Shown here: positions 1 to 5,985 of the stretch, piece by piece
Position numbering within the stretch: position 1 is the stretch's first letter
Layout: each line of letters begins with the position of its first letter
Virus record (IMG/VR): IMGVR_UViG_2778261105_000002
Span: 1 to 6,838 of that record
DNA length: 6,838 nucleotides
Source: a virus
Lineage: Duplodnaviria; Heunggongvirae; Uroviricota; Caudoviricetes
Reading direction: 5' to 3' (one strand)
Position numbers and translations under genes: made by a program
The notes under the pieces: model-generated
Seen by the model: only the letters and a program-made list of their open reading frames with translations
Told to the model about the DNA's origin: nothing
Databases searched by the model: none

Positions 1-119
1 TTGCAGAAAAAATACCGCTCACCGCCCTGCACCGTCAGGTCGATTTCCCAGAGCACCACCCGCGGTGACTGCTCTGACTTAACCGACTCGTTCAGGCTTT
101 CTTCGTGAATATCCTGCAT
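1..119 (-). CDS. L: Minor tail protein L (lambda gpL-like), N-terminal fragment only; gene continues past the window start
   Basis: Minus-strand translation from ATG at 119..117 gives MQDIHEESLNESVKSEQSPRVVLWEIDLTVQGGERYFFC, closely matching the lambda gpL N-terminus as I remember it (MQDIRQETLNE...VVLWEIDLTEVGGERYFFC). An in-frame ATG at 131..129 (MGGY-MQDI) is an alternative start but follows the terminator U-tract directly with no Shine-Dalgarno. This ORF is below the length cutoff of the supplied track. Confidence 0.8.
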   Translation of the reverse strand, partial: MQDIHEESLNESVKSEQSPRVVLWEIDLTVQGGERYFFC

Positions 120-131
120 ATATCCGCCCAT

Positions 132-155
132 AAAAAAGGGGCGCAGACGCGCCCC
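132..155 (-). terminator. Rho-independent terminator closing the porin cassette
   Basis: On the minus strand: GGGGCGC-GUCU-GCGCCCC (perfect 7-bp all-GC stem at 155..138, 4-nt loop) followed directly by UUUUUU (137..132). On the plus strand the hairpin is preceded, not followed, by the A-run, so it is unidirectional for minus-strand transcripts. Confidence 0.75.
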
Positions 156-158
156 GAA

Positions 159-328
159 CAATAAAAGTCCAATTTAAAATAAAACCAATAAAGGTAATAA
201 CAGAAAGTTAAATCAGCACATGCCAGATGGCAATTGCTGATCGCAGTGACCAATGAAAACTGTGTTTTCATTGATACAGGCCGCCTGTAAGGGCAGACGG
301 CCCGTATTTATTAACTTATCAGCAATAA
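159..328 (-). ncRNA. Structured 3' region of the porin transcript; candidate 3'-UTR-derived small RNA (IpeX-like hypothesis)
   Basis: About 170 nt between the porin stop (331..329) and the terminator carry three consecutive hairpins: a 9-bp inverted repeat ACTTATCAG/CTGATAAGT (314..322 / 335..343) with the stop codon in its loop; a 9-bp stem at 279..302 with a 6-nt loop (one C/A mismatch on plus, a G-U wobble in minus-strand RNA); and a perfect 10-bp inverted repeat CAATGAAAAC-TGT-GTTTTCATTG (251..273). No convincing ORF is present. The sRNA assignment is inference only. Confidence 0.25.
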
Positions 329-1483
329 TCAGAACTGATAAGTCATACCCACAGCAACGATATTATCTGTCGCAACACCGGCTTTCCGGGTAAATTCACT
401 TTCATCAATCAGGTTAATTTTATAATCAACATAGGTGGACATATTCTTGTTAAAGTAATAAGTCGCACCGACATCAATATATTTAACCAGATCCTGATCG
501 CCATGGTTCACACCACCAACCATAACATCCTGTCCGCGGGACTGAAGGTAGGCAAGGGACGGGCGCAGACCAAAATCAAACTGATACTGAACAACGGCTT
601 CGATATTCTGAGCTTTATCCGCAACACCTTGATCACCAAAGGTCGTCATATTCTGGGTTTCAGAATACACTGCTGCCAGATACAGGTTATTGGCATCATA
701 TTTAAGACCAGTTCCCCAGAATTCAGCATGTTTACCTTTTGCCACACTACCTGAGTCAACTGCTTTTTCTCCAACCTTTTTACCTGATGCAGGATCAAGA
801 ACATCTGCAGTACCATTCAACCCCTGAACCTGCTTATCAGTACGATCTGACTTGGTATACGCAGCGACAAAACCAAAACCATCAAACTCATAGCTGGCCG
901 AGAAACCATACCCGTCGCCATTAGCCTTCTGAAGGTCATCACGCTCATTTTTGCCCTGATACTGCGCCGCAAAATTCAGACCATCAACCAGTCCGAAGAA
1001 GTCTGTATTACGGTAAGTCAGGACACCGGAAGTTCGGGCCGTCATAAAGTTATCGGTCTGCGTCCAGCCATCACCACCAAACTCAGGCAGTACGTCAGTA
1101 TATGATCCGACATCGTAAGCAATACCATAGTTACGTCCGTAATCAATGGTACCAACATCTGCAAATCTCAGACCTGCAAATGCCAGACGGGTTTTATTTC
1201 CCGCGGAACCTTCAGATTCCGTTTTATTACCAGAGAACTGGTATTCCCACTGACCAAATCCGGTCAGTTGATCATTAATCTGCGTTTCGCCTTTAAAGCC
1301 GAGACGAGCATAAGTCTGGTCTCCGTCATTACCTTTATCATCCGAGAAGTAATGCAGAGCGGTTGCACGCCCGTAAAGATCCAGTTTATTACCATCTTTA
1401 TTATAAACTTCTGCTGCCTGCGCCCCCGCAGCAAACATCACTGCCACTGCTACAGCAGAAAGTGCCACTGTCATTTTTTTCAT
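329..1483 (-). CDS. General bacterial porin, OmpC/OmpF/PhoE family (16-strand outer membrane porin), complete, 384 aa
   Basis: Full ORF with a Shine-Dalgarno AAGGA 7 nt upstream of ATG (1483..1481). Signal peptide [23 protein letters not shown] with an AQA|AEV cleavage site. Mature N-terminus [16 protein letters not shown]3 constriction motif PEFGG, conserved blocks [79 protein letters not shown], and a C-terminal aromatic ...GMTYQF, all characteristic of enterobacterial general porins. Confidence 0.95.
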
Positions 1484-1681
1484 GATTTAATCCTTATTTA
1501 AACTGAACTATTCATGCATTCAGATGTCATGAACAAAAATTAAAATATTTTAATACAAATTCTTAGTTCAATTTATATTATGTAACAAAATGTAAATGCA
1601 AGATCGATTTCGCACTTTCTGACAAGACAGATTAAAAATAATTAACAACTAAACACTAAAGAATGATTTATAGGATAATTC
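1484..1681 (-). promoter_or_regulatory. AT-rich upstream and 5'-UTR region of the porin gene (own promoter likely)
   Basis: A 198-bp AT-rich spacer starts immediately after the M stop codon (1684..1682). A sigma70-like candidate on the minus strand is TTGCAT - 17 nt - ATATAA (approx 1602..1574), but its spacer overlaps the OmpR-like box, so the exact promoter is unresolved. A perfect 14-bp palindrome TTAAAATATTTTAA lies at 1540..1553. Confidence 0.5.
1577..1596 (-). promoter_or_regulatory. OmpR-box-like motif
   Basis: Minus-strand TTTACATTTTGTTACATAAT, with direct half-sites TTTACA and GTTACA 10 bp apart. It closely resembles the E. coli OmpR sites as I recall them (ompC C1 TTTACATTTTGAAACATCTA; ompF F1 TTTACTTTTGGTTACATATT). 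It lies 94-113 nt upstream of the porin ATG. Confidence 0.4.
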
Positions 1682-2023
1682 TCATCTAACTACCTGCTCT
1701 ATCGTGCAACTGAAATCACTGTACCGGGCGTTATCCGTAATACTCCACTCCCGGCACACCACCCTGACCGTCCGGTTATGTTTCGGGGGCTTCCACAAAA
1801 AAGCCCGGTAACCACCATGCCATGACAGAAACGCGGACAGTGCCTCCCGCTCAGCATCCGTTGTCACCCGAAAAACCACCTGAAAGGTCTTCAGTTGCGC
1901 ATTCAGTCCTGCCGGACGACGCTGCTGATAACCGTCGCCAAACTTCACCGTCATCACCGACGGTTTCTCCGTCACCTGCATCCCTTCCCGGGGACACCAG
2001 TGAAGAGTCTTAATCTCATCCAC
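1682..2023 (-). CDS. M: Minor tail protein M (lambda gpM-like), 113 aa, GTG start
   Basis: Translation ...IKTLHWCPREGMQVTEKPSVMTVKFGDGYQQRRPAGLNAQLKTFQV...CTIEQVVR aligns along its whole length with lambda gpM as I remember it (MKTFRWKVKPGMDVASVPSVRKVRFGDGYSQRAPAGLNANLKTY...FEQVVN). The start is GTG at 2023..2021 with GGAGGA 7 nt upstream, overlapping the H stop codon. Confidence 0.9.
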   Translation of the reverse strand: MDEIKTLHWCPREGMQVTEKPSVMTVKFGDGYQQRRPAGLNAQLKTFQVVFRVTTDAEREALSAFLSWHGGYRAFLWKPPKHNRTVRVVCREWSITDNARYSDFSCTIEQVVR

Positions 2024-5276: not shown

Positions 5277-5297
5277 AAAAAAACCGCCTCAGCGGTT
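5277..5297 (-). terminator. Weak terminator-like hairpin plus U-tract between the T stop and the H start
   Basis: Minus-strand RNA AACCGC-UGAG-GCGGUU followed by UUUUU (U-run 5283..5277, the first two Us possibly paired). The stem is short with a 4-bp GC core, so at best a partial terminator or an mRNA structural element. Confidence 0.3.
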
Positions 5298-5305
5298 CTC
5301 ATCAT

Positions 5306-5985
5306 TCATGACTGTGCTGCAAGGCTCAGCGCGTCTTCCAGCGCCGCAAACGGATCCACCTCCGGCTTATCCTCATCCTCGCCCCAGCAGAGCATGGCGT
5401 CCTTCAGTGCAACATTCATCCCCTGTGCCCCGAAAACCGCTTTCACGATCTGTGCATTACGGATATCCCCGCGCTCATCACCCAGCGGGGATATCCTGTC
5501 GAACTCCATCCACATCATCGCCTCGCTCGCACTCAGGCTGTGCCGCAGTTCGGATAAGGTGCGCCCCAGACGGAGCGCAAGTCGCATCAGAAAGCGAATT
5601 TCCGGGCGGGCTACTTTTTTCTGACCGACTCTGCATCAGCGATCAGTTCCAGTGCCTGACGCAGCAAGCGGGCATGTACCGGACCATAGACGGCCAGCAC
5701 CTGCTCACGGTCGTCCGGAGTGAACACCCGTTGCAGATCCGTATCACACAGGACATCGCAGAACAGCGTCACATCCGCTTCCAGGTTACGGCGGGTTTTC
5801 GCCACCACCGACAGAGTATCGTCATCCTCTCCATCACCATTGAGCACGTCCTGCCACAGATACCAGGCCTCTGCCGAAGGCTCCCGCAGCACCACGCTGA
5901 CATTACCCCATTCCGGCACCTTCACCGTTTTATGACGAAACCCTGACAGTCTGGCCAGCGCCAGCGTTTTCAGATCCTTTTTCAT
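5306..5985 (-). CDS. Tail assembly chaperone G-T fusion made by programmed -1 ribosomal frameshift (G frame 5985..5614, then T frame 5614..5306)
   Basis: The G frame ends ...AESVRKK* with codons AGA AAA AAG TAG. The heptamer A_AAA_AAG (5620..5614) is a classic -1 slippery site. After a -1 slip the reading continues GTA GCC CGC CCG GAA... = VARPEIRFLMRLALRLG..., which is exactly the upstream extension and body of the 93-aa ORF 5306..5587. Position between V and H matches the conserved G/G-T arrangement. Confidence 0.75.
5611..5985 (-). CDS. G: Tail assembly chaperone G (lambda gpG-like), about 124 aa
   Basis: ORF directly downstream of V on the same strand. Preferred start is ATG at 5985..5983 (MKKDLKTLALARLSG...) with SD AGGGGA 9 nt upstream. 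The track's longer start at 6033 would overlap the V 3' end by 34 nt and has no SD. Assignment is by position and the frameshift architecture; I could not confirm sequence identity to lambda gpG from memory. Confidence 0.75.
   Translation of the reverse strand: MKKDLKTLALARLSGFRHKTVKVPEWGNVSVVLREPSAEAWYLWQDVLNGDGEDDDTLSVVAKTRRNLEADVTLFCDVLCDTDLQRVFTPDDREQVLAVYGPVHARLLRQALELIADAESVRKK
5614..5620 (-). other. -1 programmed frameshift slippery heptamer A_AAA_AAG
   Basis: Minus-strand AAAAAAG sits immediately before the G stop codon TAG (5613..5611), and the -1 frame is open for 102 further codons. Confidence 0.75.

Follow-up and report, generated by a model that had tools for sequence, protein, structure and literature searches.

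A prophage porin 3′ untranslated region related to IpeX contains a conserved box predicted to pair with the ompC leader

The 6,838-nucleotide stretch of viral DNA that we analysed as a whole (hereafter the window) carries on its minus strand a prophage porin gene whose 3′ untranslated region (UTR) is a diverged member of the IpeX kind of RNA, located at a new prophage position. The region forms an RNA structure supported by covariation, is homologous to the ipeX region of E. coli K-12, and contains a conserved box with specific complementarity to the leader of the host porin gene ompC. Judging from the duplex models, the UTR probably acts by MicC-like pairing, and we think it likely that this 3′ UTR of a prophage porin cassette works as an IpeX-kind RNA by the mechanism set out below. 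A first-pass annotation of the same DNA had proposed a candidate IpeX-like 3′-UTR riboregulator at this place. That proposal is now supported by homology detected with a covariance model, by the kinship of the porin, by covariation and by predicted pairing with ompC and ompF, with a shift of emphasis: the likely active part is an unpaired box between the fourth hairpin (hp4) and the terminator, not a hairpin.

The porin gene (329..1483, minus strand; stop TGA at 331..329) was identified from the list of open reading frames and encodes a protein of 384 aa of the Lc/NmpC lineage. PGAP annotates it as 'porin OmpC'. The protein is 72–73% identical to Lc/NmpC, 65% to OmpC and 62% to OmpF, with 62–65% across OmpC, OmpF and OmpN, and sequence comparison places it as the sister of Lc/NmpC. 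When one genome per species was scanned at the protein level, the closest other porins reached at most 68% identity.

Folding of the minus-strand RNA from 345 to 120 gave a minimum free energy of –94.1 kcal/mol, compared to –52.0 ± 4.2 kcal/mol for 200 dinucleotide shuffles (z = –10.1; 0/200 shuffles reached the observed value). The ~200 nt from the porin stop to the terminator formed four hairpins followed by the terminator, all on the minus strand, and the hairpins were found by both RNA folding and RNAalifold. The first of them, hp1 (345..312), has 12 bp including 2 G·U pairs and spans the TGA stop, so that the last porin codons make up its 5′ arm. It is followed by hp2 (307..274; 14 bp, G+C-rich), hp3 (273..251; a perfect 10 bp) and hp4 (242..211; an 8-bp basal stem with a variable 4-bp top). 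Between hp3 and hp4 lies the linker GUCACUGC (243..250), which is predicted to be unpaired and was recognised by its invariant columns. The box 5′-UUUAACUUUCUGUUAUUACCUUUAUUGGUUUU (212..181), also predicted to be unpaired, was delimited by conservation and duplex energies, and we call it the anti-porin box. An A/U-rich spacer (156..180), read from the sequence as a candidate Hfq-binding stretch by analogy with other sRNAs, leads to a Rho-independent terminator with a 7-bp all-G-C stem and a 4-nt loop (stem 155..138) and a run of T6 (137..132). Fold and separate terminator scan agreed on this terminator, which the first-pass annotation had already described as strong at 155..132. The three minus-strand hairpins listed there are all real, as is the perfect 10-bp repeat at 251..273, but hp4 had been missed, and two stems had been drawn too short: the 9-bp repeat at 314..343 across the stop codon is the 12-bp hp1, and the 9-bp stem at 279..302 is the 14-bp hp2.

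Pairing was then counted on this specified structure in an alignment (A3) of 11 distinct window-type variants. Between 96.9 and 100% of the cells in hp1–hp4 were paired (hp1 96.9%, hp2 98.7%, hp3 100%), and compensatory two-sided changes occurred at 8 pairs, 3 in hp2, 4 in hp3 and 1 in hp4, so the covariation across homologous cassettes that had been named as a check is present. The observed covariation score was reached by 0/500 shuffles, and moving the 3′ partners by 1–3 columns lowered pairing to 33–42%. RNAalifold on A3 independently gave the same five helices, with all seven terminator pairs invariant across the variants. The most conserved parts of the UTR were the linker (8/8 columns invariant), the box (25/31) and the terminator, whereas the hairpins varied with compensation.

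The invariance of GUCACUGC in 11/11 variants, though it is predicted to be unpaired and lies outside the box, is an observation in its own right. The linker might be recognised by a nuclease or a protein, or might act as a second seed; its 9-bp match to ompF codons 7–10 (GCAGUGAUC) is by itself not significant. The top of hp4 was deleted in variants L007–L009 and inverted between L005 and L006. In the latter pair (L005:2600-2640 and L006:2600-2640, window ~230..216), which are otherwise near-identical, the change is an exact 15-nt inversion, AATTGCCATGCATAT versus ATATGCATGGCAATT, that preserves the hairpin and looks like a hairpin-mediated template switch. RNAalifold also drew a long-range 4-bp helix of CUGC with GCGG (A3 columns 101–104 and 223–226; window ~245..242 and ~124..121), with one G-C to G-U change in the variants. 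Since one side of this helix lies beyond the T-run, it is possible only in read-through (late, antiterminated) transcripts.

Published work reports that IpeX lowers OmpC and OmpF and is produced within the porin transcript. In K-12, the nmpC stop and the end of the terminator T-run delimit 165 nt, corresponding to the IpeX of 167 nt in the literature (PMC12197685). The same sequence lies downstream of lc in phage PA-2 (100% identical), and this DLP12-type ipeX region is present in 2,510 of 5,426 E. coli genomes. Searches with blastn, including its 'distant' mode, found no link between the window-type and DLP12-type UTRs. A covariance model (R1) built from the 11 window-type sequences only, with no ipeX sequence included, nevertheless gave full-length matches to the ipeX regions of K-12 and PA-2 and to those of three further strains, at 32.7–40.1 bits (E 2.5e-7 to 2.4e-9), with K-12 and PA-2 at 33.4 bits (E 1.5e-7); part of the score stems from the conserved last codons and the terminator. 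Within 80 kb of K-12 DNA that included the ompC, ompF and ompA loci, R1 gave no match beyond the ipeX region. Among 80 porin loci from the scan of other species, only an E. coli NmpC-type locus (L018) had the module or a strong match to the model. The R1 matches together with the 72–73% identity of the porins indicate that the window UTR is a distant ipeX homologue on a sister porin. Pairwise alignment of the window UTR with the K-12 ipeX region, a comparison with the nmpC/lc downstream regions that the first-pass annotation had suggested and in which blastn failed, showed sequence identity in three places only: the last codons, the box (AACYUUCUGUUAU...UACC(C)UUUAUU) and the terminator (GGGGCG...CGCCCC).

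The layout of the two RNAs is also alike. Both lie between the stop codon of an Lc/NmpC-lineage porin gene of a lambdoid prophage and a Rho-independent terminator; folding of the K-12 ipeX region gave three hairpins, an unpaired box and the terminator, in the same order as in the window UTR. In both, hairpins are followed by an unpaired A/U-rich box with the core YUUCUGUUAU...UACC(C)UUUAUU, antisense to the ompC leader, and then by the G+C-rich terminator. This core was identical in four DLP12-type variants (K-12, L010, L011 and L012), of which L010 is 89.6% identical to K-12 overall. In contrast, the hairpin sequences of the two types are unrelated. The window type has an extra hairpin over the stop codon and a spacer of ~25 nt of A/U-rich sequence, bringing it to ~200 nt compared to 165 nt, and its box is without the AUAUU insertion of the IpeX box. 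The locations differ as well, the window cassette lying between M and L of the tail operon, in the orientation of the late genes, whereas IpeX adjoins Q in the opposite orientation. Rfam searches with the whole window and with the region alone gave no match near a gathering score. Rfam is without an IpeX family and did not match the K-12 ipeX region either, so the missing match for the window UTR is uninformative.

Some genomes have both loci, and hence two anti-ompC boxes of different sequence. Strain JNEC-KY203 (NZ_AP045179.1, hits H79 and H107), for example, carries a window-type cassette and a DLP12-type nmpC/ipeX locus. A further full-length but weak R1 match (23.3 bits, E 3e-4), possibly spurious, was seen in Serratia fonticola (L041:3913-4085; 55% G+C), ~1.3 kb downstream of a porin gene.

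Besides the last codons, the box is the only sequence outside the terminator that the window UTR and K-12 ipeX have in common. Duplexes were calculated for the unpaired box only, with dinucleotide shuffles, genomic background and opening energies as controls. The box at 212..181, whose sections include CUGUUAU and CCUUUAUU, is predicted to be antisense to the ompC leader at –36..–5 and to the ompF leader at –22..–4. On ompC, the predicted duplex comprises 15 bp at –19..–5, including the Shine-Dalgarno GAGGG, 8 bp at –30..–23 and 5 bp at –36..–32, in total 28 bp with 3 G·U pairs at –27.8 kcal/mol. The K-12 IpeX box would form 9 bp (–31..–23) and 15 bp (–21..–7) at –26.7 kcal/mol, and the L007-type box would be shifted in register, pairing through 12 bp over the AUG (+1..+12) and also with the Shine-Dalgarno (–23.8 kcal/mol). 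There are at least three box variants, and all keep the ompC match. The K-12 ompC leader (L014, –21..+12) contains a tandem near-repeat, AUAACAGAGGGUUA then AUAACAUGAAAGUUA; because of this near-repeat the phage boxes have two registers, over the Shine-Dalgarno or over the AUG.

Shuffled boxes already averaged –14.7 kcal/mol on ompC, box and leader both being A/U-rich, and the observed ompC energy was reached by 1/2000 shuffles for the window box and by one or two in 2,000 for each box. The genomic background consisted of 3,996 windows of 60 nt from 50 kb of K-12 DNA and 42 real start regions. The ompC energy was matched by 0/3,996 background windows for the window box, 0/3,996 for K-12 IpeX and 1/3,996 for the L007-type box, and by 0/42 start regions. 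Pairing of the boxes with ompF was weaker, at –19 to –20 kcal/mol, within the top 0.2–0.8% of the background, while pairing with ompA, with the leader of the cassette's own porin and with the lc leader was average. The check for pairing with the host ompC and ompF leaders named in the first-pass annotation thus gave a strong and specific prediction. After correction for opening, the ompC totals were –14.4 kcal/mol for the window box, –15.7 for K-12 IpeX and –13.5 for the L007-type box, compared to –14.3 and –18.7 kcal/mol for the validated pairs MicC-ompC and MicF-ompF and to +4.0 and –4.4 kcal/mol for the cross-controls MicC-ompF and MicF-ompC. Within the UTR taken alone, the box was only partly open, with a mean unpaired probability of 0.46. 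The target itself is nearly constant, the ompC leader being ≥99% identical in 5,364 of 5,371 E. coli genomes. In the original IpeX paper, ipeX reportedly has no complementarity with the ompC untranslated region and is said to act on ompC independently of Hfq. The complementarity of the box is at odds with the first of these statements. The same paper is said to report no effect on OmpA, and the average pairing with ompA fits this.

MicC represses ompC via a duplex in the same leader (PMC5745476). The window box resembles the MicC seed (GUUAUAUGCCUUUAUUG...UUUUAUUUU in MicC, GUUAU-UACCUUUAUUG-G-UUUUAUUUU in the window), its target includes the MicC site in the ompC leader (–30..–15), and both RNAs are linked to a porin gene, which for MicC is ompN. 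MicC, however, is a free-standing gene of 109 nt that has its own promoter, is divergent from ompN and carries its seed at the 5′ end, whereas the window seed lies inside the 3′ UTR of a porin mRNA and reaches over the Shine-Dalgarno. The Rfam MicC model (RF00121) gave no match at E ≤ 10 on 110..350, nor at E ≤ 1 on the whole window. We therefore rejected identity with MicC: the model is unmatched, the region is a porin 3′ UTR, and only the seed is alike. MicF shares with the box the property of being antisense to a porin ribosome-binding site, and MicF nt 10–40 are identical to the box at 24/30 positions (window) or 26/32 (L007), with p ~0.003–0.008. This likeness is modest, and homology between the ompC and ompF leaders may be enough to account for it. 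The target of MicF is ompF, its gene is divergent from ompC, and identity with it (RF00033) was also rejected, since there was no Rfam match and the likeness is local, to nt 10–40 only. R1 positions 133–205, which cover the box and terminator, gave weak matches (10–17 bits, E 0.02–1) on the opposite strand ~330–430 nt upstream of chromosomal porin genes of several genera, among them Buttiauxella, Lelliottia, Kluyvera and Leclercia (L042, L046, L047, L062, L067, L074, L083 and L097). This is the place and strand where micF lies in E. coli, and we regard these matches as putative micF.

CpxQ, SroC and MicL are sRNAs derived from 3′ UTRs. The window UTR resembles them in a terminator held in common with the parent mRNA and in a conserved seed in the 3′ part. 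They differ from it in being core-genome RNAs with demonstrated RNase E processing.

We propose that in the lysogen the cassette would be transcribed from its own promoter, with transcripts ending at the terminator (155..132). The four hairpins probably protect the RNA and mark off a stable 3′ fragment, and the conserved A/U-rich box would stay unpaired just upstream of the terminator. An unpaired box beside an A/U-rich stretch and a terminator is, by analogy, a typical Hfq-binding arrangement. Whether still part of the intact porin mRNA or released from it by cleavage as a small RNA, the box would pair with the ompC leader, where it would cover the MicC site and the Shine-Dalgarno, and less strongly with the ribosome-binding site of ompF; translation would thereby be blocked and decay promoted. 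The leader of the phage porin lacks complementarity to the box, and the phage porin mRNA would not be a target. The net outcome would be replacement of OmpC and OmpF by the phage porin. We infer that the RNA is transcribed and processed in vivo with Hfq and RNase E taking part, that it represses there, and that the phage would benefit from a changed receptor and permeability profile. Such a mechanism fits the reported behaviour of IpeX as well as the ompC-micF and ompN-micC arrangement. We lean, by a little, toward extending it to the whole IpeX family: the K-12 and PA-2 IpeX would then also work by direct antisense pairing through the conserved MicC-like box, and phage porin genes would share the rule of ompC-micF and ompN-micC, each porin gene being linked to an RNA that silences competing porins. 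Such a reading departs from the understanding prevailing since 2006, in which IpeX has no complementarity to ompC.

It is unlikely, in our estimate, that the hairpins and terminator are only a 3′-end module of the mRNA. As such a module they would serve as exonuclease barriers, stabilise the porin mRNA and end transcription, the box would have no role in trans, and its ompC match would be left over from ancestry shared with porin leaders or with micC. Retention of hairpin structure while hairpin sequence is lost is indeed typical of stabilisers, but here the box is more conserved than the hairpins and, outside the terminator, is the sole sequence kept between families whose hairpins have no sequence in common. 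The box variants pair with ompC in different registers, which could mean that the match is an ancestral similarity (an inverted porin-leader remnant) and not a maintained interaction. In addition, the internal repeat of the ompC leader makes matches easier, and the likeness of the box to MicC and MicF reaches only p ~0.003–0.02. A leftover of this kind has to be weighed against a complementarity that is specific to ompC and ompF, and not found for ompA or the phage porin leaders, against corrected energies that equal the validated MicC-ompC pair, and against the reported repression of OmpC and OmpF in trans by the homologous IpeX region. We believe that these points favour antisense pairing of the box with host porin leaders.

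The location of the cassette bears on whether the element might instead act in cis. The window represents the tail region of a lambdoid prophage, and all its genes are on the minus strand (list of open reading frames and RefSeq annotation). It is 100% identical to E. coli strain N51, where RefSeq annotates a tape measure protein, tail protein M, 'porin OmpC' and minor tail protein L. The tail gene M occupies 2023..1682 (stop at 1684..1682; list of open reading frames and RefSeq annotation), and L starts at 119 (RefSeq annotation). Comparison with phages and the N51 annotation delimited a porin cassette of ~1.56 kb (120..1690, minus strand) between the M stop and the L start. Phage BP-4795 and ~148 other phage records matched window 1..119 only and then ran straight into M; in BP-4795 the M stop overlaps the L start. 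Because these cassette-less phages join M to L directly, the cassette at ~120..1690 is an insertion exactly at the M/L junction. A putative sigma-70 promoter of the cassette (TTGCAT, 18 nt, TATAAA; 1572..1601, minus strand) was read by eye. The consensus promoter scan missed it, its –10 hexamer having A at position 6. The same scan, with that miss to be borne in mind, found no internal sigma-70-like promoter on the minus strand of the UTR, which fits co-transcription with the porin as weak evidence.

That the element acts in cis on the late operon, as a processing or insulation site or by controlling read-through into L-K-I-J, we hold to be highly unlikely. The cassette does lie inside the late tail operon in the same orientation, its terminator immediately precedes the L start codon, and the CUGC/GCGG helix past the T-run belongs to read-through RNA only. 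However, the homologous module after nmpC/lc occupies a different place in the prophage, where it adjoins Q and points the other way; since these copies sit elsewhere, the module travels with the porin gene and not with the tail operon. Phages without the cassette, moreover, join M and L with nothing in between. The cassette resembles the lambdoid accessory-gene cassettes ('morons', for example lom and bor) in being a self-contained insertion of promoter, gene and terminator between conserved phage genes that would be expressed from the prophage. It differs from them in that the terminator-proximal UTR appears to add a second, RNA-level function.

The UTR was present in 111 of 5,426 complete E. 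coli genomes, at 120 places, always between M and L and at 100% to 75% identity; N51 and 2013C-3181 are examples of lysogens with the cassette. IMG/VR contained 31 further true copies; two other pattern matches there (L099 and L112) were rejected as false. A blastn search of the UTR against the phage GenBank collection gave no match. This distribution weighs against the idea that the inverted repeats are DNA-level features, either REP-like or MITE-like palindromes or scars of cassette insertion, which we judge more improbable still than action in cis. The exact inversion of the hp4 top between L005 and L006 is a DNA-level event, and a REP-finding tool classes the K-12 ipeX as REP-containing (PMC12306157). 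The sequence is nevertheless not dispersed but confined to a single context, and a REP or dispersed-palindrome class was rejected because each genome has one or two sites, all of them downstream of this porin. The strand preference also points to RNA: the plus strand from 345 to 120 folded markedly worse (–72.4 kcal/mol, z = –7.0). All non-Watson-Crick pairs kept in the 11 variants were G·U on the minus-strand RNA, with zero A·C cells, and would be A·C mismatches in the other strand. The earlier claim that the minus-strand RNA pairs better holds on both counts. In hp1, variation was confined to the non-coding 3′ arm and led only to G·U or A-U. The wobbles and this restriction together argue for selection on the porin-strand RNA. 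That the region encodes a small protein, the 59-aa ORF at 271..92 in the mechanical ORF list, is barely conceivable and was rejected, the frame being broken or start-less in 6/11 variants (stop at codon 4 in L005/L006, no ATG in L007–L009/L108) and shifted by indels of 1, 3 and 13 nt, in agreement with the first-pass statement that the region has no credible ORF.

A regulatory porin RNA with these properties makes the IpeX kind a family with at least two deeply diverged lineages that moves with phage porin genes to different prophage locations. What the lineages have in common is the MicC-like box antisense to the ompC ribosome-binding region, not the hairpins. The anti-ompC box shared with K-12 IpeX is a new addition to the picture and makes the mechanism of IpeX testable. 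The distribution of the UTR suggests that a second means of replacing OmpC and OmpF is present in ~2% of E. coli genomes, many from Shiga-toxin-producing strains, with altered phage receptors, antibiotic permeability and surface antigens as possible consequences. The C-terminus of the tail-tip protein J had its best matches among Stx-phage J proteins (≤89.6% identical) to which receptors are not assigned, and is neutral on OmpC as a receptor.

Two further observations concern the surroundings of the cassette. Downstream of J, the N51 prophage (L131) carries a Hok/Gef toxin gene and a gene for an adhesin-like protein with a YadA C-terminal domain. Within the window, 5277..5344 (minus strand) gave a weak Rfam match (23.7 bits, E 0.065; gathering score 50) to isrK, an Hfq-binding sRNA of Salmonella prophages. 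This stretch is flanked by the tail assembly gene T and the gene for the tape measure and ends in a terminator-like hairpin followed by a U-run.
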